Shown piece after piece: positions 7,600 through 19,808 of a stretch of DNA of 39,981 nt. This DNA comes from Thermotogota bacterium (GTDB lineage: Bacteria > Thermotogota > Thermotogae > Petrotogales > Kosmotogaceae), in the NCBI GenBank assembly GCA_034660555.1, contig JAYEJL010000135.1, forward strand, positions 1 to 39,981, read 5' to 3'. Each line of letters opens with the position of its first letter. The stretch's first letter is position 1. The notes under the pieces are model-generated. The model made no database searches and was not told the DNA's origin. It saw nothing but the letters and a program-made list of their open reading frames with translations. The position numbers and the translations under genes are program-made.

Positions 7600-8565
7600 C
7601 TATAAACTAAATCTTATACTCGGATCATTAAAAGCGAGCATGAAATCTGCAATGAGATTTCCTATGATTATCATAACACCGCTTAGAAGAACAGTCCCCA
7701 TAGAAAGGAAGACATCCTGCATTCTAAAAGAATTATAAGCGAGACTACCAAGTCCGGGCAATTTGAATATAACTTCAACGAAAATTAAACCACTAAGAAT
7801 TGCAGAAAAAGCAAATCCAAAATCAGTAATAATGGGATTGACCGCATTTTTCAAAACATGCTTTCTTGTAAGTAACTTTTCTGGTAAACCCTTTACTTTT
7901 GCAAACTGCACATATTCTTTCTGAAGTTCTTCCAGAAATTGCCCCCTCATTATACGCATGATAGACCCTATCCTCGGAATGACAAGAATAATAATTGGCG
8001 GTATTAAATGTAAAGCTCTATCAAAAACTTTTTCAGTAAAATTCATGTAAATGTAGGTTGGAGATTTTGTACCACTGCTTGGAAGTAAAAGTGTAAGAGA
8101 CATAATGTAATACTACACATATGCTAGAAAGAAATCCGGTAATGACATTCCTAAAAAGCTCAAAAATGAAAAACTTTGACTTTTAAAAGAATACTGATGT
8201 TTGGCCACATAAATTCCCATTGGAATTGCTATCGTTCATGACACAATTAACGAGGTTAAGCCCATCATTAAAGTGAAAGCAACTCTAATCCAGATAATTT
8301 CTGTAACAGGCTGCCCAAAACCCCATGATACGCCCAGACTGCCTGAAACAACCTGTTTCAACCATCTACCATACTGTACAATAAAAGGCTGATCCAGTCC
8401 AAACCTGCGTTCTAATGCTTCTATCTGTTCTACCGGCATTCCAATAAGCCTGAAACGATCGAGAAAATCCCCCGGTGCCAGGTAGATTATGAGAAATGCG
8501 ATAAGAGATATTCCAAACAAAACTGGTAATGTAAGCAAAAGCCTTCTAACAATATATCTTAGCAT
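7600..8565 (-). pseudogene. Oligopeptide/dipeptide ABC permease (DppB/OppB-like) with two in-frame stops
   Basis: ORFs 8236..8565 and 7600..8103 share a frame; TGA at 8236-8238 and TAG at 8113-8115; the intervening region reads TIAIPMGIYVA...GMSLPDFFLA; EAA-like loop YVQFAKVKGL. Confidence 0.9.
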
Positions 8566-8715: not shown

Positions 8716-8764
8716 GATTATATAGCAGGTAGATTTTTTTCCAATATTTGATTAAATGAAATTC

Positions 8765-10543
8765 TTAATAATTTCCATATAGTGGCCCGAGGGCTTTACA
8801 GGCTCTGTAATCTGCGCTCTCCAGATTTTCAGTACCAAAAGCAGCCCAGGTTTTTGGTCTGAATATCCTGTCTTTTTCTACATTGTGCATGGAAACCGGA
8901 ATTCTCAAGATAGAAGCAAGGGCTATTAATTCTGCCCCAATATGGCCATAACTTATTGCACCGTGATTGGCACCCCAATTGTTCATGACTGAGTAGACAT
9001 CTCTGAAAGCTCCTTTTCCAGTTAATTTAGGAGCAAACCATGTTGTAGGCCATGATGGATCGGTTCGTTCGTCAAGAGCTTTGTTTACTTTTTTATCCAG
9101 TTTTACAGTATAACCCTCTGCGATCTGCAATACGGGACCCAATCCCTTGACAATGTTTATTCTACACATTGTAGCGGGCATTTCACCCTCAGTAAGAAAT
9201 TTACTTGAAAATCCACCGCCTCTAAAATATTCTACATTTGCGGGACACCATTCTGTTGCTTTAAGACATTTTTCCATTTCATCTTCAGTGATCTCCCAGA
9301 AGGGTTTCATAACAGAATTACCATTTTCGTCTTTTTCTTTACCTGTACCGTCTAGTGTTGTGGAACCTGAATTTTTTAAATGTATTACACCATCTTTTGC
9401 TTTGCCTTGAAGTGATTTACCTGTAACTCTTTTAACAGCTTCAGGACTCCAGTAGGTTCTCACATCAGAAAATATTTGAGCTGTGTTAGTAAGCAAGTAA
9501 CCAAACAACATGGAAACTGCATTCAGGGAATCGTTTTCAGTCGCCACAATAAAAGGATTTCTTATGCCGTTCCAATCAAAAGAAGAATTGAGTATTGCTT
9601 CTGAGAAATCACCGTTGGGAAAGTGATCTGTCCATTGTCTCTGACCCTGAAATCCGGAGGCTATTGCATAATGTCCCTCTGCTTCTTCACCGTAATTCAT
9701 CTCTTTCAATTTTGGATTTCCTATCATCATATCTCTGATGATCATTGTCATCTTTATGATGAATTCCCATTGTTTATCCTTTTCTTCACGGTTGAATTGT
9801 TTTTCCTTTGCGTTTATATCAATACCTTCCTTGCAGTTTTTACTTACCCAGTCAAGTGCTTTTTTGTATTCTTCTTCATCATATATTTCTTCTTCTATTC
9901 TTCTTATGATTTCGGACATATCACTGTATTCAACATGCATTCCAAGATACTTCTCAAAAAAATCTTCATTTACCACTGATCCGGCTATTCCCATCGAAAC
10001 AGAGCCAATGGACAAATAGGCCTTTTTCCTCATGAATGCAACAGCAAGAGCTGCTCTTGCAAATTTCAGAATTTTAGTTTTTACATCTTCGGGTATAGAA
10101 AGATCATCGGCGTCTTGAACATTTTTTCCATAAATCGCAAAAGCTGGAAAGCCTTTTTGATCGTGTGCTGCAGAAACAGCTGCAAGAAAAACCGCACCGG
10201 GTCTTTCACTGCCGTTAAAACCCCAAATAGCCTTGGGAATAAGAGGATTTTCATCCATTACCTCGGAGCCATAGCACCAGCAAGGGGTTACCGTCAATGA
10301 TACTCCAACATTTTCTCTTTCAAATTTTTCAGCACATTTTACTGATTCGGCATAACCACCTATTGTTGTGTCTGAAATACATGTTTTTACAGGTGAACCA
10401 TCAATATACATCAGCTCGTTTTCAAGCAAATTGGCAACTTTTTTAGCAAGCTCCATTGTTTGACTCTCAAGTGATTCTCTTATGCCTTTTCTTCTACCGT
10501 CAATTACCGGTCTAATACCAATTTTCGGAAAATCTTTTATCAT
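8765..10543 (-). CDS. fucI: L-fucose/D-arabinose isomerase
   Basis: [60 protein letters not shown]; 592 aa. Confidence 0.97.
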
Positions 10544-10574
10544 CTATTTTCACCTCCTATAATTTGCAGTCATT

Positions 10575-11318
10575 TTATTTTCCAAGATTATTAGAAATTC
10601 TTTTAACAGAATCCATTAAAAGCTTTTTGTATTTTTCTAATTTTTGTCCTTTCATTCTTATTTTGGGTCCTGAGATACTAATTGAAGCAACAACTTTCCC
10701 TTTATTGTTAAATATGGGAGCACCAACACACATTATACCTTCATCATGTTCTTCGTTATCTAACGCAAATCCCTGCTTTTTAATTCTTTCTAGCTCTTTT
10801 TCGAATTCTTTTTTATCAGTGATCGTATTTTTTGTATATCTTTTCAATTCAATACTTGACAAGATTTCTTCCTGCTCTTTATCAGGTAAAAATGCAAGAA
10901 TTGCTTTACCAACGGAAGTGCAATAAATTGGCGAGCGTTTTCCTATCCATAATTTTGCCTGAAGGTTGTGGCTGCTTCCCATTCCCTCAATAGATGTAAC
11001 TTCGTTCCCGTCAAGCACTCCCATGTGGATAGATTCTTCAGTATACTTGCTCAATTTTTCTATCTCCGGAAAAGCTAATTCCCTAAGTTCCAGTGTTTCA
11101 AGATAAAGACTCCCCAGTTCAAACAATTTAATACCAATTCTATACTTAGAAATTTTATTGTCCTTACTTAATATATTAACCCTATTCAGTGCCTCAGCAA
11201 TTCTATAAACAGTAGATTTGTGTAATCCTGTTTTATCTGTCAGTTCTTTTAGAGTCAACTCAGGCTTATCTAAAGAGAAAGAGTCAAAAATTTTAATTAT
11301 TCTTTCTATTGCCTGCAC
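10575..11318 (-). CDS. IclR family transcriptional regulator
   Basis: N-terminal HTH (LTLKELTDKTGLHKSTVYR); CTSVGKAILA; GFALDNEEHDEGIMCVGAPI. Confidence 0.95.
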   Translation of the reverse strand: MQAIERIIKIFDSFSLDKPELTLKELTDKTGLHKSTVYRIAEALNRVNILSKDNKISKYRIGIKLFELGSLYLETLELRELAFPEIEKLSKYTEESIHMGVLDGNEVTSIEGMGSSHNLQAKLWIGKRSPIYCTSVGKAILAFLPDKEQEEILSSIELKRYTKNTITDKKEFEKELERIKKQGFALDNEEHDEGIMCVGAPIFNNKGKVVASISISGPKIRMKGQKLEKYKKLLMDSVKRISNNLGK

Positions 11319-11331
11319 TAAATCACCTCAA

Positions 11332-12627
11332 TCAACCAGCATAACCAAATATTCTTGGAAGCCACAGAACGATATCCGGGAAATACGTAATCAATATTAA
11401 ACCAAGTATCTCAATGGGAATAAAGTATCTCAGCATTTCACCGAATACTTTGCTTACTGGCGTTTTACTTAGAGCGCTAGTAATGTAACCTGTTTGACCG
11501 TAGGGCGGTGTATCAAGCGCTAACATCAAGTTTACAGTAGTAATTACACCAAAGTGAACCAGATCTATCCCCACAGCTTCAACCAGTGGAAGCATTATCG
11601 GAATTACCACAAGTTGAATAACTGATACATCAAAAAACATGCCCAGCAAGAAAAACATAATGTTGGTACTCAACAAAAGTAAAAACCTTGAGTCAAGCAT
11701 TCCCGAATCTATGAAGAAATTAGTTATTAATAATGGAATTTCTTCTCTGGCCAATACATATTTTACTATTAATGCTGCTGCAATCATAAAACTAATAAAT
11801 CCAACCGAGTAAACTGTTTTCATTATGATCTTTTTAAACTTTTTGAAGCTCATTTTCTTGTACACAATAATGCTTATTAATAATACATAGCCCACCAGAA
11901 CCGCTGCAGCTTCTGTCGGCGTAAAAATACCTCCATAAATTCCTACCAGAAGCATAATTGGAGCCAACAAAGCGGCAAAAGATCTTCTAAAACTCTTCAA
12001 CAATACCTTAAACGGATATTTTTTCCCTTTAGGATATCCTCTTTTTTTTGAAAGATAGTAAACCATTCCAGCTTCAAGTAATGCTATTAACAAACCTGGT
12101 ATTATCCCTGCCAGAAATAGATATCCCAGCGATGCTCCGGTTAACATTGCGTATATAACCATGGGAATACTTGGTGGAATTATTGGTGAAATCGTAGCTG
12201 AAGCACATGTAACAGCGCTGGCAAATTCTCCATCATATCCATCGTCCATCATGGCTTTTATCTCTATGGCACCGATTCCTGAAACATCAGCTATCTCGGA
12301 ACCACTCATGCCAGCAAAAATTATACTTGTGGCAATATTGGTATAAGCAAGTCCTCCTCTGACCCCACCCATTGATTGCTTCACAAAGCCAAATATTATA
12401 TCTGTTACATCTGTATCGTTCATTAAATTTGCAGCGAAAATGAACATAGGAACAGCCATTAGAACATCTTTACCGCTAAGTTCAATCGCCATTACGTCCA
12501 TAAATGACCCAAGACCGACTCCGGCAGTAATGAAATAGGTGAAACCACCCATTACCATTGCAAAAGCTATGGGGAAACCAAGAGCAAAAGCGCCAAGAAA
12601 AACTATAAAGAATAATGCTAATCCCAT
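11332..12627 (-). CDS. dctM: TRAP transporter large permease
   Basis: AVPMFIFAANLM, FAGMSGS, IIPPSIPMVIY, TPTEAAA, TPPYG; 431 aa polytopic. Confidence 0.95.
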   Translation of the reverse strand: MGLALFFIVFLGAFALGFPIAFAMVMGGFTYFITAGVGLGSFMDVMAIELSGKDVLMAVPMFIFAANLMNDTDVTDIIFGFVKQSMGGVRGGLAYTNIATSIIFAGMSGSEIADVSGIGAIEIKAMMDDGYDGEFASAVTCASATISPIIPPSIPMVIYAMLTGASLGYLFLAGIIPGLLIALLEAGMVYYLSKKRGYPKGKKYPFKVLLKSFRRSFAALLAPIMLLVGIYGGIFTPTEAAAVLVGYVLLISIIVYKKMSFKKFKKIIMKTVYSVGFISFMIAAALIVKYVLAREEIPLLITNFFIDSGMLDSRFLLLLSTNIMFFLLGMFFDVSVIQLVVIPIMLPLVEAVGIDLVHFGVITTVNLMLALDTPPYGQTGYITSALSKTPVSKVFGEMLRYFIPIEILGLILITYFPDIVLWLPRIFGYAG

Positions 12628-13145
12628 GGCTCTTCCTCGTTAGCGGATTTTTTTACTGTAATTAATTCTCTTGTGTCTTTGTAAATCCATATCAAATTAT
12701 GAATTATCATTAAAATTAAGAATAATGGAAAGCAAAACAAAAGATAACTCCAGGGTATTTTTAATACATTAGATCTTATCATTCTATAAAAAACGATATC
12801 GTCCCATATCGGAAAAAACGTAACAAAAAGCATGACAGTGAAAAATGCGTTGAAAATCAGATCAAACACAATTTGTAGTTTTCTCGAAACCATGTCATAG
12901 ATAACATTGAATTTCATGTGTGCTCCGAATCTTCTAGCAAGAGGCGCCCCAAGGAAAATAATCCATATGAAAGAATATCTGGATATCTCAAATAATTCCG
13001 GTGATGGATTGTTGAACACATACCTCATTACTACCTGTACAAAAAGCGCAGTAAATAACAGAAGCAAAAAAACAGAAGCAACCCGATATTCTATGAAATC
13101 AATTATGAATCTCCCTGTCTTTTTCAACGCTCTCAAAAATGCCAT
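12618..13145 (-). CDS. dctQ: TRAP transporter small permease
   Basis: QVVMRYVFNNP, EISRYSFIWIIFLGA, 4 TM segments; GGAGG RBS before ATG at 13145. Confidence 0.92.
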   Translation of the reverse strand: MAFLRALKKTGRFIIDFIEYRVASVFLLLLFTALFVQVVMRYVFNNPSPELFEISRYSFIWIIFLGAPLARRFGAHMKFNVIYDMVSRKLQIVFDLIFNAFFTVMLFVTFFPIWDDIVFYRMIRSNVLKIPWSYLLFCFPLFLILMIIHNLIWIYKDTRELITVKKSANEEEPWD

Positions 13146-13168
13146 CTCATTTGAACCTCCTGCTAAAA

Positions 13169-13198
13169 TCACGGAAAGATCTTACGATCTTCCCGTGA
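13169..13198 (-). terminator. Intercistronic hairpin (stabiliser or partial terminator) between dctP and dctQ
   Basis: TCACGGAAAGATC...GATCTTCCCGTGA. Confidence 0.65.
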
Positions 13199-13220
13199 AA
13201 AAAATAAACAGTTGTCGATG

Positions 13221-14219
13221 TTATTCTGTTGGATAATTCTGTATAAATTCGTAGAGACCTTCGCCCCATTTTTCGTTGAATTGCGGCTGTGAATAGTATT
13301 CAGCTGCATGTTCCATGAATGCTTCTTTATCTGGAATAATTATTTCCATGTCATATTCATCAACAAATTGTTTTAAGAGTTTGGCTTCCTGTTCCAGCAC
13401 CAATTCATTCATGTAATACCTTGCAACCAGCATAGCTTTTTCAATGTAAGTACGATACTCCAGAGGCATTTCCTGCCAGAGATCTTCATTGATAACAGGG
13501 TTTATCATACCAATTGAGTGATCAGTTAATGTTATGTATTTTGTAACCTCAACGAATTTTGCGGATAAATCTGTGGGTAGGGGGTTGTCCTGACCATCAA
13601 TTGTACCGGTTCTAAGAGCCAGATAAACTTCTCCAAATCCCATTGGAGTCGGTTTAGCACCCAATGCCCTTCCCATATCCAGGAAAGCTTCATTATTTGG
13701 CATTCTGATCTTTACTCCTGCCAAATCTTCTGGCTTTTTGATTTCGCCAGCTCTTGCAGTCGTATTTAACTGTCTCGTTCCCAGATACCAGGTATCGAGA
13801 ACTCTTAAACCAGTTTCTTCAGCCAGTTCATCAAACCACTCTTTTACAAAAGGACTGTGCATTACCTGATACATATGATCCAGATCTCTGAAAATGTATG
13901 CAGAATTCAAAACTCCCATCTTTGGCATATTTGCAAGATCTGCAAACCATGACGGAGCTGCGTCTCCTGCCATTTCAAGATCTCCACGCATTACAGATAA
14001 CAACGATGTCTGCTGATCACCCAGCTGTCCTGAATGGAAAATTTTGACTTCAATTTCGCCTCCACTTAAATCTTCAACAATTTCCTTGAATTTTTCCATT
14101 GCTTTAACTTGAGGTTGCGTAGGTGCAGCAACAGTGTTGAATCTCAAAGTATATTCAGCTTGTGCGAAAATAAACGAAGCCAATAAAACTGTAATAACCA
14201 CAAAAAGTACTTTCTTCAT
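13221..14219 (-). CDS. dctP: TRAP transporter substrate-binding protein (DctP/SiaP-like)
   Basis: Signal peptide; SGQLG, GTRQ, KIRMP (carboxylate-binding Arg), GEVYLALRTGTIDGQDNP. Confidence 0.95.
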   Translation of the reverse strand: MKKVLFVVITVLLASFIFAQAEYTLRFNTVAAPTQPQVKAMEKFKEIVEDLSGGEIEVKIFHSGQLGDQQTSLLSVMRGDLEMAGDAAPSWFADLANMPKMGVLNSAYIFRDLDHMYQVMHSPFVKEWFDELAEETGLRVLDTWYLGTRQLNTTARAGEIKKPEDLAGVKIRMPNNEAFLDMGRALGAKPTPMGFGEVYLALRTGTIDGQDNPLPTDLSAKFVEVTKYITLTDHSIGMINPVINEDLWQEMPLEYRTYIEKAMLVARYYMNELVLEQEAKLLKQFVDEYDMEIIIPDKEAFMEHAAEYYSQPQFNEKWGEGLYEFIQNYPTE

Positions 14220-14256
14220 AAAACATCTACCTCCCAGTTATAAAATGGATGATTTT

Positions 14257-15171
14257 TTAGATTTTGCCGTTTTCTTTCAGGGATTCTTTTAGTACTTCAA
14301 TTTCATCTTCCTGGAGCTCTGCAAGTGGTGGCCTCACCCGAGCAACATCCAGCCCTGAATGTAAAGCAAAGGCTTTCTTTACACCCGGCAAAGGATTTTC
14401 GAAACGACCGTTTCGTCCAAAAAATGCTTTGAATAACTTATATAGTCTTCTAAAGGTCTGTGTTGCTTCTTTTACATTTCCTGAATAATATTTATTTAGC
14501 ATATCCTTCATTATGTCTCCTATAACGTGAGAACCCCCGCTAACTACTCCGACTCCTCCCTGAGTCAAAACGGATAAAACCATCAAATCATCACCTGAAT
14601 AAACCACCATTTTTCCATCTGTCGCACTTAAAAAAGCTGAAGTTTGTAGAGGATTGATACCAGCCTCATCCTTCACTCCAACTATGTTGTCCACTTCGCT
14701 TAATTCTGCCAGTGTTTCCGGTTCAATATTTGTGGCTGTAAAAAGTGGAATGTTGTACACCATGATAGGCAAACTCGTACTATTGGCAACTCTAATGAAG
14801 TGATTTTTTACTCCATCCTGTGTCGGATGACAGTAATAAGGAACAACAACCATTGCAGCATCATAGCCGATTCTTTCAGCTTCTTTTGTTAATTTGATAG
14901 TTTCTTCTGTAAACGCAGTTCCCGTACCTGCTATCAGTGGTCTTTCATTACCCACTTCTTCTTTAACAGCTTCAAATAGCTTAACCTTTTCGTCGTAGGA
15001 CATCGCATAAAACTCACCGTTTGTCCCTGCAACAATCAATGAATCGCAATAATCCTTTTCAATTAGAAATCTTGCTATTTGCTTTGTTTTTGCGTAATCA
15101 ATATCGTAGTTCTCTTTGAAAGCAGTGTTTATTGGTATCAAAACTCTTCCAAAATGCTTTACAACATCCAT
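14257..15171 (-). CDS. DHDPS/NAL-family pyruvate-dependent class I aldolase (probably not DapA)
   Basis: GTNGE, VVPYY, YNIPLFT, Schiff-base Lys in VGVKDEAG, SGDD. Confidence 0.85.
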   Translation of the reverse strand: MDVVKHFGRVLIPINTAFKENYDIDYAKTKQIARFLIEKDYCDSLIVAGTNGEFYAMSYDEKVKLFEAVKEEVGNERPLIAGTGTAFTEETIKLTKEAERIGYDAAMVVVPYYCHPTQDGVKNHFIRVANSTSLPIMVYNIPLFTATNIEPETLAELSEVDNIVGVKDEAGINPLQTSAFLSATDGKMVVYSGDDLMVLSVLTQGGVGVVSGGSHVIGDIMKDMLNKYYSGNVKEATQTFRRLYKLFKAFFGRNGRFENPLPGVKKAFALHSGLDVARVRPPLAELQEDEIEVLKESLKENGKI

Positions 15172-15186
15172 CTTTATTCCTCCTTT

Positions 15187-15227
15187 ATTTCATTCAGTGA
15201 AATGCTATTTCTACCAATGAAATTATA
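15187..15227 (-). promoter_or_regulatory. Tandem IclR-type operators next to the -10 of the aldolase-TRAP operon
   Basis: ATTTCA-N5-TGAAAT (15187-15203) and ATTTCT-N5-TGAAAT (15207-15223); minus-strand TATAAT at 15222-15227. Confidence 0.65.
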
Positions 15228-16162: not shown

Positions 16163-16274
16163 TAAAGTAGAATAATGCATATAGAATAAACTTTCACGAT
16201 ACATTTCTTTTAGATTGCTAATATTCGTTCTTGATAAACTCTCTTGGAAGGTAGAACATGAAATTAGGAGGGAT

Positions 16275-16661
16275 ATGATGAAAGAGGTAACTATTCGTAC
16301 AAGAATGAGTTTCCACGATGCTCATTACGGCGGAGGGCTTGTGGATGGTGCAAAAGTTCTTCAATATTTTGGAGATGTTGCCACAGAACTGCTTATCCGT
16401 AACGATGGCGATGAAGGACTTTTTAAGGCTTATGACAACATTGAATTTCTGGCACCAGTTTTTGCCGGGGATTTTATAGAGTTTACTGGAAGAATAGAGA
16501 AAACAGGAAACACTTCAAGAAAAATGTCATTTGAAGCAAAAAAAGTGATTAAAGCAAGACCAGATATATCTGATTCCGCAGCTGAAGTACTCGATGAGCC
16601 GGTAATTGTTTGCAAAGCAAGCGGAACCTGTGTGGTTCCAAAGGAAAAACAGAGGGGGTGA
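16275..16661 (+). CDS. kal: 3-aminobutyryl-CoA ammonia-lyase
   Basis: [31 protein letters not shown] hotdog fold; first gene of the lysine cluster; AGGAGG RBS. Confidence 0.93.
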
Positions 16662-16665
16662 AGTA

Positions 16666-17481
16666 ATGGAGAAACTAATAATCACTGCAGCCCTTACCGG
16701 AGCAGAAGTTACAAAGGATATGCAACCGAACCTACCCGTCATTCCTAAAGAGATTGCTGAAGAAGCTTACAAATGTTATGAAGCAGGTGCTTCCATTGTT
16801 CATGTTCATGCGAGAGAAAGTGATGGTACTCCCACCCAATCTCAAAAAATATATTCCGAAATCAAAAAACTTGTAGAAAAGAAGTGCAACATAATCGTTC
16901 AACCTTCAACGGGTGGAGCTGTCTGGCATGATTTAGAAGAAAGGTTACAGCCTTTAAAAATCAATCCAGAGATGGCCACATTGACCACGGGCACATGTAA
17001 TTTTGGCGATAGTATTTTCAGCAATCCCATGGACTATATTATGCGTTTTGCGAAAGAAATGAACGAAAGAAATATAAAACCAGAAATTGAGGTTTTTGAT
17101 AGAGGGATGATAAATAACGCACTTTATCTGGTCAAGAAAGGGATTCTTGAGCTTCCATTACATTTTGACTTCGTGATGGGTGTGCCTGGAGCTATTCCAG
17201 GTAAGTTTAGAGATCTTGTCTATTTGGTTGAGAGTATCCCGCCAGGATGCACTTGGGCGGTTGCAGGAATTGGTAGATATGAATTGCTTCTTGCCACTCA
17301 TGCTGTTGCCATGGGCGGACATGTAAGAGTTGGTTTTGAAGACAATATATATTATCGAAAAGGCGAACTGGCTACATCCAATGCCCAACTCGTAGAAAGA
17401 ATCGTAAGAATAGCAAAAGAGCTGGACAGAGAAGTGGCAACACCTGACGAAGCAAGAAAAATTCTTAACATCAGGAGGTAA
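16666..17481 (+). CDS. kce: 3-keto-5-aminohexanoate cleavage enzyme
   Basis: KLIITAALTGAE, HVHAR, QPSTGGA, GHVRVGFEDN. Confidence 0.95.
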   Translation: MEKLIITAALTGAEVTKDMQPNLPVIPKEIAEEAYKCYEAGASIVHVHARESDGTPTQSQKIYSEIKKLVEKKCNIIVQPSTGGAVWHDLEERLQPLKINPEMATLTTGTCNFGDSIFSNPMDYIMRFAKEMNERNIKPEIEVFDRGMINNALYLVKKGILELPLHFDFVMGVPGAIPGKFRDLVYLVESIPPGCTWAVAGIGRYELLLATHAVAMGGHVRVGFEDNIYYRKGELATSNAQLVERIVRIAKELDREVATPDEARKILNIRR

Positions 17482-17484
17482 ATC

Positions 17485-18519
17485 ATGAAAACCGGATCTC
17501 CCTACGGAATTCATAGAGTACTCGAACCAGAAGGTTCACTACCACAGTCAGCACAAAAGATCGACAACCAGATGGAGATCTATTCAAATGAAATACTAAT
17601 AGATGTAGAGATTTTGAACATAGATTCAGCAAGCTTTACACAAATAAAGGAATCCTGTAATGGGGATCTCAATAGAATAGCCAGAACCATCGAAGGTATT
17701 GTTGAAGAACGCGGGAAGATGCAGAATCCAGTAACCGGTTCCGGAGGTATGCTTGTTGGAAGGATTAGCGAGATAGGACCGGAACTCTCAAATCGCCCAA
17801 TAAAAGTTGGAGACAGGATAGCTACTCTCGTATCTCTCTCTCTTACACCACTAAGAATTGATGAAATTATAAACATAAACGCTGATACCGATCAGGTAGA
17901 TATTAAAGGAAAGGCAATACTTTTTGAAAGCGGTATATATACGAAATTACCTGAAGACATTCCCCAGAAACTTGCCCTGGCAGTACTGGATGTTGCAGGT
18001 GCTCCAGCTCAGGTAAAAAAACTGGTGAAACCCGGGATGAATGTTTGTATTATAGGTGGCGGGGGAAAATCAGGAATTCTTTGCGCATACCAGGCAAGTA
18101 AAATCGTGGGTAATACCGGTAAAGTAATAGTAGTTGAAAATTCTTTAAAAAACGCTGAAAGAATCGAAAAACTGGGCATCGCTACAGATGTTGTTGTTGC
18201 TAACGCAAAAATACCTGTTGATGTACTGGAAGGCGTTAAAGAAGTAACAAACGGAGAATTATGTGATGTTGTAATAAACAACGTAAATGTGGATGCAACG
18301 GAAATGTCTTCAATTCTCATCACAAAAGATGAAGGCACTGTCTATTTTTTCAGTATGGCAACCGATTTTACCCGTGCTGCCCTGGGTGCTGAGGGAGTAG
18401 GAAAAGATATTAACATGATCATCGGAAACGGATACACTAAAAACCATGCACGCTTGAGTCTCGATATTATTAGAGAATCAAAGGAAATTAGAAAATTATT
18501 TGAACAATTATATATATAA
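17485..18519 (+). CDS. kdd: L-erythro-3,5-diaminohexanoate dehydrogenase
   Basis: [47 protein letters not shown]. Confidence 0.95.
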
Positions 18520-18533
18520 ATTGGAGGGTTTGT

Positions 18534-19808
18534 ATGAGAGATTACAAAAAAATATCGCTCTGGAAGGATGTTACAGAAGAGCAGTGGAATGACTGGCACT
18601 GGCAAGTTAGCAACAGAATCACCACTGTTGATAGATTAAAAAAGGTATTAAATTTAACCCCTGCTGAACAGAATGGAATAAAGAACTGTCTTGACACGCT
18701 ACGAATGTCTGTCACTCCTTATTATGCAACACTAATGGATTACGATAACACGAGAGATCCTATCAGAAGGCAGGCGGTCCCGACCGAAAATGAACTGATG
18801 TTCGATCGTTGGGACATGGTAGATCCTCTTGACGAAGACGAGGATTCACCAGTAGTCGGATTAACACACCGCTATCCTGACAGGGTTCTTTTTCTGGTTA
18901 CCGATCAGTGTTCAATGTATTGCAGACATTGCACGAGAAGACGCTTTGCAGGTCACAAAGATAAGCCACGATCGAAGAAAGAATTGGATGATGCTATTGA
19001 ATATATAAAAGAGACACCTCAAGTTAGAGATGTTCTGCTTTCTGGTGGAGACCCATTATTACTAAGCAACTATGGACTTGAATACATAATAAAGGAACTG
19101 AGAAAAATCAAGCATGTGGAAATCATAAGAATAGGAACACGCACGCCTGCTGTTTTACCACAAAGAATAACTCCCGCTCTTGTAAATATGCTGAAAAAAT
19201 ATCACCCTATATGGTTAAATACTCATTTCAACCATCCCAAAGAAATAACACCTGATTCAAAGAAAGCATGCGAAATGCTTGCAGATGCGGGAATACCGTT
19301 AGGCAATCAATCGGTATTGTTGAAGGGCATAAATGATAGTGCTTACATAATGATGGAACTGGTGCACAGGCTGGTTGAAATCAGAGTAAGACCATATTAT
19401 ATGTATCAGTGTGACCTATCTCAGGGTATCAAGCATTTTAGAACATCCATAAGAAAAGGCATTTCAATTATGGAGTCGTTAATCGGGCATACATCAGGCT
19501 TTTGTGTGCCAACATTTGTGGTAGATGCTCCCGGAGGAGGCGGAAAAATAAGGGTTATGCCCCAGTACATGGTATCGGAATCTGATAAAACTGTTGTTCT
19601 CAGAAACTATGAAGGTGTGATAACTACTTATCACGAACCGGATGATATAACCACAGATGTCAATGATACAGAATACAGAAAGAAGTACAAACTTACAGGG
19701 GTTGCCGGCTTAATGCAGGGCAAAAAAATAAACATTGAACCTTCAGACCTTGAACGTAGAAAAAGAATCAAAAGCTGGAAAAGCAAAACTTCTGCAAAGA
19801 AAAAATAG
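18534..19808 (+). CDS. kamA: Lysine 2,3-aminomutase (radical SAM, PLP)
   Basis: [15 protein letters not shown] radical SAM motif, [18 protein letters not shown] lysine. Confidence 0.97.

Follow-up and report, generated by a model that had tools for sequence, protein, structure and literature searches.

An aldolase-TRAP-IclR-FucI operon in a Kosmotogaceae bacterium: a candidate module for the scavenging of 3-deoxy-2-ulosonic acids

The closest described counterpart of the gene cluster considered here is the sialic-acid system of Haemophilus influenzae, SiaPQM-NanA-NanE-NanK. It combines a tripartite ATP-independent periplasmic (TRAP) transporter, whose solute-binding protein has an Arg carboxylate site, with a Schiff-base lyase of the dihydrodipicolinate synthase/N-acetylneuraminate lyase (DHDPS/NAL) superfamily, an aldose-converting enzyme and a kinase. 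Similar components, apart from the kinase, which lies elsewhere in the genome, are united in the operon ALD-dctPQM-iclR-fucI of a Kosmotogaceae bacterium (Thermotogota; assembly GCA_034660555.1, 2.1 Mb, completeness 95.5 %). The operon occupies positions 8765 to 15171 of the window analysed, i.e., the 39,981 nucleotides at positions 1 to 39,981 of contig JAYEJL010000135.1; ALD denotes its aldolase. The operon is real and is mis-annotated in public databases, and it is best read, by analogy with the sialic-acid cluster, as a catabolic module for a 3-deoxy-ulosonic acid of at least eight carbons (C8). It differs from the H. influenzae cluster in that ALD is nearer to DapA than to NanA and scores below the NanA cut-offs, FucI takes the place of the epimerase, the regulator belongs to the IclR family and the substrate is presumably not N-acetylated.

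A second point of comparison is the textbook route by which E. coli uses D-arabinose via FucI, FucK and FucA. The Kosmotogaceae genome likewise encodes a canonical FucI, along with a kinase resembling FucK/RhaB and a class II aldolase resembling FucA. However, the aldose would here arise inside the cell from an imported acid, and the kinase and aldolase genes are not linked to fucI.

The acid that comes to mind is Kdo (3-deoxy-D-manno-octulosonate). It is the universal core sugar of LPS and hence a component of nearly all Gram-negative cell envelopes; some capsules and the rhamnogalacturonan II of plants contain it as well. Kdo aldolase (EC 4.1.2.23) catalyses the reaction that we propose for ALD, from Kdo to pyruvate and D-arabinose, but it is known only as an enzyme preparation with no defined sequence family and can be compared by its reaction alone. 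The activity (Ghalambor and Heath 1966) and the enzymology of 1966 and 1990 are cited in PMC12199768. The searchable literature yielded the activity only, with neither a Kdo aldolase gene nor a gene-level pathway of Kdo breakdown. It contained no paper that connects an octulosonate with D-arabinose and fucose isomerase, nor one that connects a TRAP transporter with FucI and a DHDPS-family gene.

A DapA-like aldolase heads a six-gene operon

A preliminary description of this stretch had proposed that an aldolase, dctPQM, iclR and fucI lie here in co-oriented order. The six open reading frames are indeed found at the predicted coordinates, all on the minus strand and all with strong family assignments. 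In the order ALD-dctPQM-iclR-fucI they are separated by 37, 48, -10, 13 and 31 nt, the negative value being a 10-nt overlap of dctQ and dctM, in a window that is AT-rich (35–40 % G+C). Profile matches of the operon proteins also bear out the earlier statement that fucK, fucA, fucP and fucU are missing from the operon.

ALD (14257..15171, minus strand, 304 aa) belongs to the DHDPS/NAL superfamily of class I pyruvate aldolases, with 239 bits for PF00701. It also passes the dapA equivalog TIGR00674 (238.2 bits against a cut-off of 206.15), hence its public dapA label; the named homologues in public databases all bear the name 4-hydroxy-tetrahydrodipicolinate synthase, i.e., DapA. Alignment to solved DapA structures identifies K167 (in VGVKDE) as the Schiff-base Lys and Y139 as the catalytic Tyr, with T50 retained, and both K167 and Y139 are invariant in the alignment of ALD homologues. 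The motif YNIPLFT (residues 139–145) places Phe144 where DapA has Arg138 (YNVPxRT; E. coli numbering), and the same Phe is found in 118 of the 120 closest homologues of ALD. In DapA this Arg binds the carboxylate of aspartate semialdehyde, and its loss from ALD fits a neutral aldehyde as the predicted partner of pyruvate. The motifs that the preliminary description had pointed out, including the Schiff-base Lys, the catalytic Tyr and the missing Arg, are thus all present in the alignment. However, one of them, GTNGE (residues 49–53), is less telling than it appeared: ALD does read GTNGEF where DapA has GTTGES, with Phe for the Ser after GTxGE, but the Asn is a peculiarity of the Kosmotogaceae and the remaining ALD orthologues have GTTGE.

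Could the automated annotation nevertheless be right, with ALD serving lysine synthesis beside unrelated transport and fucose genes? The TIGR00674 score and the unanimous public names speak for it, and so does descent. In a quick maximum-likelihood tree with SH-aLRT support the ALD clade (100 % support) is the sister of true DapA, a placement that calls for care given the long branches; the fold, the Schiff-base Lys and the Tyr are shared as well. ALD is 38–41 % identical to true Bacillus DapA, the only relative that the plasmid collection contained; no ALD orthologue was found there. Against this stand the Arg-to-Phe replacement, the conserved linkage to TRAP and isomerase genes described below, and the rest of the genome. 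ALD is the sole DHDPS-family gene of the host, so that the search for a separate dapA, which had been suggested earlier, came back empty in this genome. At 95.5 % completeness the genome also gave no dapB above cut-off (best match 29 bits against 122) and no match to lysA. Besides ALD, a distinct dapA adjoining dapB is present in three of the five complete relatives compared; the other two have ALD and no dapB above cut-off, one of them with a further DHDPS-family match over the dapA cut-off. The true DapA sequences of the relatives retain YNVP(G/S)RTG. With the diaminopimelate pathway missing and the gene context catabolic, an ALD that acts as DapA is next to inconceivable and was rejected; the earlier suspicion that the dapA annotation hides another role was well placed.

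Import, cleavage and isomerisation

The TRAP transporter is complete, with its P, Q and M subunits encoded together. DctP (13221..14219, minus strand; PF03480, 237 bits; TIGR00787, 211 bits) is the solute-binding protein and carries a signal peptide. The small membrane subunit DctQ (12618..13172, minus strand; PF04290, 81 bits) has an ambiguous start, either the GTG at 13172 or an ATG nine codons further downstream, and DctM (11332..12627, minus strand; PF06808, 297 bits; TIGR00786, 341 bits) is the large membrane subunit. DctP contains the sequence KIRMP, whose Arg had been put forward as a carboxylate ligand; this residue, R172, is the same in all 18 aligned sequences. Together with R149 and N212, which are likewise conserved, it aligns with the RxP and NP motifs of SiaP and of 4pf6, and we take the three residues to be the equivalents of the SiaP carboxylate triad. 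Throughout the Thermotogota, DctP orthologues are 67–78 % identical, an unusually high conservation which argues for a single ligand.

Profile searches place DctP in generic DctP family models only, and its ligand has to be approached via solved relatives. The best of these is 4pf6 (Roseobacter denitrificans RD1_0742, an Enzyme Function Initiative target), with 172 bits, E = 2e-49 and about 33 % identity. It is followed by SiaP sialic-acid binders with 131–156 bits, 28–31 % identity and Z about 30. The nearness of the SiaPs raises the possibility of an operon for uptake of Neu5Ac or Kdn followed by a sialic-acid lyase. We consider this highly improbable, since ALD scores far below the cut-offs for NanA (133 against 281 for NF003164; 114 against 382 for TIGR00683), NanE, NanK and NagA/B are not in the operon, and ManNAc and mannose are established not to be substrates of FucI.

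FucI (8765..10543, minus strand, 592 aa) is a canonical L-fucose/D-arabinose isomerase. It passes both equivalogs by a wide margin (1081 bits against 775 for NF008220; 1036 against 850 for TIGR01089), contains all three domains of the family (PF07881, PF07882 and PF02952) and has as its best solved relative 3a9r, titled “D-arabinose isomerase”, with 942 bits. Enzymes of this type act on aldoses of at least five carbons with the L-fucose/D-arabinose configuration. Since ALD as a pyruvate lyase would require a 2-keto-3-deoxy acid, and since pyruvate is released while FucI needs an aldose of at least C5, the imported acid should have at least eight carbons. Kdo is split into pyruvate and D-arabinose, a classic FucI substrate, and to our knowledge it is the only common natural 2-keto-3-deoxy acid of at least C8 that yields a substrate of FucI. 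The reverse order, in which a uronic or 5-keto-4-deoxy acid would be isomerised before it is cleaved, was rejected on chemical grounds, as the cleavage products would be implausible.

The remainder of the genome was searched for enzymes upstream and downstream of these steps. As the preliminary description had hoped, there is a candidate for phosphorylation of the ketose: a predicted RhaB/FucK-like FGGY kinase on another contig (C76), which shares 43 % identity with the regulon kinase found in Mesotoga and Kosmotoga. Its neighbours are a FucA-like class II aldolase and a regulon-type LacI fragment. The absence of fucK and fucA thus holds within the operon but not genome-wide. In contrast to an E. 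coli-type fuc regulon, where they would be expected, FucP, FucU and FucR are missing from the host. No fucose permease FucP, no GH29 fucosidase and no FucU was found in its genome, in which the RbsD/FucU family is represented by a single gene, for a ribose pyranase, beside that of an RbsR-like regulator; FucI is therefore left without an evident external supply of substrate. Kdo-8-P synthase was not found in the host genome either, and any Kdo would therefore be exogenous.

The proposed pathway would run as follows. DctPQM, complete and equipped with the conserved carboxylate-binding residues, would import the acid. ALD, a DapA-derived Schiff-base pyruvate lyase by its catalytic residues and its lost Arg, would cleave the acid into pyruvate and a neutral aldose, D-arabinose in the case of Kdo, which FucI, by virtue of its family, would turn into the ketose, D-ribulose. 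The ketose may then be phosphorylated and cleaved by the FGGY kinase and the FucA-like aldolase of C76, giving dihydroxyacetone phosphate and glycolaldehyde; alternatively, a pentulokinase may lead to ribulose-5-phosphate. That the operon follows this logic of import, cleavage and isomerisation for a 3-deoxy-ulosonic acid of at least C8 is, on the sequences at hand, fairly probable. Kdo itself as the substrate is somewhat short of an even bet, and is suggested by the chemistry and by the nearness of DctP to 4pf6 and to the sialic-acid binding proteins. The scheme of Kdo import, cleavage and isomerisation laid out in the preliminary description is accordingly upheld in its general logic, by the gene neighbourhoods, the phyletic linkage, the lack of dapB and lysA and the lack of fucose uptake genes, while Kdo specifically is still a deduction. 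As a whole, the picture of an IclR-repressed, self-contained unit that scavenges an exogenous 3-deoxy-2-ulosonic acid of at least C8, most likely Kdo, has in our view about an even chance of being correct.

Gene neighbourhoods in the Thermotogota and beyond

Among 151 Thermotogota genomes, surveyed for ALD orthologues at 52 % identity or more and DctP orthologues at 59 % or more, ALD is found in 38 and DctP in 44, and 37 of the 38 genomes with ALD carry both; such counts overstate the evidence, related genomes not being independent. In the one genome with ALD and no DctP orthologue (G100), the DctP beside ALD is of another type, with 28 % identity; in this genome a LarA-family gene, for a nickel-pincer 2-hydroxyacid racemase/epimerase, follows dctM (L069:13519-14799). 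A FucI-superfamily isomerase is present in 35 of the 38, the three without it being 71–80 % complete, and in 81 of all 151 genomes, i.e., it is more widespread than ALD. The neighbourhood conservation that the preliminary description had asked about is considerable: in 23 distinct Thermotogota genomes, the stretch fetched around ALD contains an isomerase in 18 and DctPQM in 17. Two Thermosipho genomes have DctPQM at a distance of about 11 kb from ALD, within one supercluster. The remaining genomes without nearby DctPQM are mostly cases of contig ends, and one is G100. The linked isomerase is mostly a FucI-like protein of 470 aa with all three FucI domains; canonical FucI takes this place in the host genome and in G041 (locus L003).

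Seven genomes have DctP and no ALD. In the six of these that were examined, another DHDPS-family aldolase follows dctM in five, an isomerase is adjacent in four and an XylB/AraB-like FGGY kinase is present in four. The gene order DctPQM-aldolase-isomerase-kinase of one such locus (L174) reads, if the predicted functions hold, as import, cleave, isomerise, phosphorylate.

Two Petrotogaceae-labelled metagenome-assembled genomes (MAGs) have a second cluster directly upstream of the orthologous operon (L003:900-7756 and L007:895-7748). It encodes an IclR regulator, an ABC transporter of the amino-acid type, an aminotransferase resembling DapC, two further DHDPS-family proteins and a ROK kinase; its substrate may be an amino sugar acid.

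Beyond the phylum, 80 loci were obtained from a scan of metagenomes, 69 of them with an ALD bearing the motifs; in 53 of these ALD is less than 56 % identical. Within seven genes of ALD, 10 of the 53 distant loci have a FucI-superfamily isomerase, which in 7 of the 10 is canonical FucI, 63–69 % identical to that of the host. Among the 53 there are also TRAP genes in 9, an IclR gene in 21 and a second DHDPS-family gene in 16. Distant ALD homologues (43–51 % identical) recur with canonical FucI, with IclR and with DctPQM or TctABC as the acid transporter in L112, L120, L124, L132, L136, L139, L145, L148 and L156. The order is ALD-FucI-(URO-D-like)-DctPQM in L112 and L145 and IclR-ALD-ALD2-LacI-FucI-...-DctPQM in L136, while in three loci (L134, L135 and L148) the acid transporter TctABC, of the tripartite tricarboxylate type, stands in for TRAP. 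BNR_2 sialidase-fold neighbours were seen at two metagenome loci (L097 and L155).

Several observations weigh against Kdo uptake and cleavage as the function of the operon, starting with the binding protein. Kdo is only the presumed ligand of 4pf6. RD1_0742 does occur in bioRxiv 10.1101/2021.12.03.471092, as a name in an alignment. The Rhodobacterales homologues of DctP that are borne on plasmids (37–39 % identical) differ from the present case in having as partners a DHDPS gene of another family and a GH78 rhamnosidase, with no FucI. In L161 and L162, the plasmids in question, the DctP homologue is divergent from a conserved trio of a DHDPS-family gene, a GntR regulator and a GH78 alpha-L-rhamnosidase; this DHDPS-family gene likewise has Phe at the position of the DapA Arg (YNFPxF), and the substrate there may be a rhamnosylated acid sugar. 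Furthermore, 13 of 23 larger distant metagenome loci have neither TRAP genes nor an isomerase near ALD, and other distant contexts comprise outer-membrane receptor-like proteins, CBM96 proteins and sulfatases. To judge from these neighbourhoods, the wider ALD family probably has more than one role.

Links with L-fucose also weigh against Kdo. In Thermosipho and in a Cloacimonadota MAG, ALD is the first gene of an operon that further encodes an isomerase, LacI, an ABC transporter of the RbsB type, i.e., of a neutral-sugar type, FucU, a TAL-like aldolase and a PfkB kinase; the TRAP genes of Thermosipho belong to an adjacent operon, together with those for an ALD2-type aldolase and the FGGY kinase. 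The cluster of Thermotoga sp. KOL6 includes a GH29 fucosidase. If the substrate is Kdo, this connection is explained only as pathway sharing, which leaves room for a fucose-related substrate. We read these ABC/FucU/GH29 contexts, by analogy with D-arabinose in E. coli, as an acid module that would feed a resident L-fucose pathway. The TAL-like aldolase and PfkB kinase were considered as parts of the TRAP module and dismissed, as both travel with the ABC/FucU module and not with compact TRAP operons. The Cloacimonadota-labelled cluster (L004; ALD-isomerase-LacI-ABC-FucU-TAL-PfkB) is nearly identical to that of Thermosipho (L006), and in the quick tree the two ALDs pair at 100 % support on short branches, which points to a recent transfer or a mis-binned contig.

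These contexts also lend themselves to a different explanation, in which the operon unites two co-regulated functions with lactaldehyde as the shared end-product: ALD would cleave a C6 2-keto-3-deoxy acid imported by the TRAP transporter, for example 2-keto-3-deoxy-L-fuconate (KDF) to pyruvate and L-lactaldehyde, and FucI would serve L-fucose catabolism. KDF aldolases of the DHDPS family are known in Campylobacter and Veillonella. In some relatives genes for FucU, for an ABC transporter of the fucose type and for a GH29 fucosidase share a cluster with ALD, and in L072 genes for an AKR and a GFO oxidoreductase come after the TRAP genes. However, no compact operon contains a sugar-acid dehydratase or a fucose dehydrogenase, and the host, without fucose transporter, fucosidase or FucU, would leave FucI substrate-less. 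Minimal operons of TRAP, aldolase, isomerase and kinase genes such as L174 are moreover sensible only if the isomerase takes the product of cleavage. Two separate functions are thus quite unlikely.

A last group of contrary observations concerns methyl groups. In one family of Thermotogota (f11; L066-L068) and in several metagenome loci (L136, L139 and L145), ALD-isomerase-TRAP operons contain corrinoid methyltransferase cassettes, in which a methyltransferase (MtaB or URO-D-type) is combined with a B12-binding protein and with RACo as the activator; this suggests anaerobic O-demethylation of methylated sugar acids in those lineages. The same logic of import, cleavage and isomerisation could therefore apply to another ulosonic acid, either an O-methylated Kdo or an undescribed C9 3-deoxy acid that gives L-fucose or L-galactose. 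5-O-methyl-Kdo occurs in green-algal scales. In L066-L068, DctP orthologues about 70 % identical sit with MtaB, B12-binding protein, MtaA and RACo genes, and in L136, L139 and L145 URO-D-type methyltransferases, B12-binding proteins and RACo flank ALD, FucI and the TRAP genes. The host genome itself has homologues of the corrinoid proteins on contigs C78 and C144 (the B12-binding protein is 51–57 % identical), and the L-fucose genes linked to ALD in Thermosipho, Cloacimonadota and Thermotoga sp. KOL6 would suit an acid that gives L-fucose. On the other hand, the host operon and most of its Thermotogota versions have no methyltransferase, Kdo is far more abundant in nature, and we know of no natural C9 3-deoxy acid giving L-fucose. 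Another ulosonic acid is, on balance, rather unlikely as the substrate in this organism.

Local control and significance of the operon

The regulator (10575..11318, minus strand) matches both PF09339 (HTH_IclR) and PF01614 (the IclR_C effector domain); it is KdgR-like, with 200 bits for NF011671 KdgR, under the cut-off. Its gene is kept beside ALD and the TRAP genes in the window and in L001-L003, L060 and L061, and is divergently transcribed in L072. It is the probable local repressor of the operon. Its operator may be the tandem palindrome at 15187..15227 (minus strand), two 17-nt boxes ATTTCAyTGrwAGAAAT and ATTTCAyTrAATGAAAT which are 3 nt apart, abut a TATAAT hexamer and lie immediately upstream of the ribosome binding site of ALD. 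Tandem boxes precede ALD in all 11 of the 11 IclR-linked loci, compared by eye. In a scan with a position weight matrix (PWM) built from 17 distinct boxes, the two boxes of the host are the top two sites genome-wide; no other strong intergenic site was found in the genome, the remaining high scores falling inside genes. Since strong sites occur only in front of this operon, it would appear to be a self-contained, locally regulated unit, and the idea of a wider IclR regulon was rejected. For the same reason, the kinase and aldolase of C76 are not visibly under the same operator. A weaker operator-like box, ATTTCATTTAATCAAAT (PWM score 16.5; 8746-8762, minus strand), is located just past the fucI stop codon and may be due to chance.

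At the other end, the preliminary description had closed the operon with a terminator. RNA folding does reveal a GC-rich hairpin followed by a U6 tract 3' of fucI (minus strand, about 8715-8682; minimum free energy -15.1 kcal/mol, z = -1.0), a plausible intrinsic terminator, but it does not figure in the terminator list of a pattern scanner, an omission that we take to reflect a loop of more than 8 nt.

The genes flanking the operon are unrelated. On one side, both on the opposite strand, are a CGGC-domain gene and, directly beside the operon, a lysine-fermentation cluster (16215-19808, plus strand) with genes for 3-aminobutyryl-CoA ammonia lyase, 3-keto-5-aminohexanoate cleavage enzyme, 3,5-diaminohexanoate dehydrogenase and lysine 2,3-aminomutase. 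Since dapB and lysA were not found, the organism appears to ferment lysine yet not to make it. On the other side, an OppB/NikB-like ABC permease gene (7600-8565, minus strand) is split into an N-terminal reading frame of 109 aa and a C-terminal one of 167 aa with a gap at 8104-8235, and is probably frameshifted or decayed.

What would these genes mean if the reading given here is correct? We tentatively propose, at somewhat less than even odds, that ALD is the long-missing gene of Kdo aldolase and that the operon with its isomerase and kinase partners constitutes the first defined pathway of Kdo catabolism, one that is common among anaerobic Thermotogota and uncultured lineages of sediments and digesters, with corrinoid O-demethylase variants that take methylated ulosonic acids. 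Genes would thereby be assigned to an orphan enzyme activity, and the systematic mis-annotation of the named public homologues as DapA would be corrected. In evolutionary terms, the operon would represent a catabolic design like that for sialic acid, rebuilt from a DapA paralogue and a fucose isomerase. Such a pathway would also explain the use of necromass by anaerobic scavengers such as Mesotoga and Kosmotoga.

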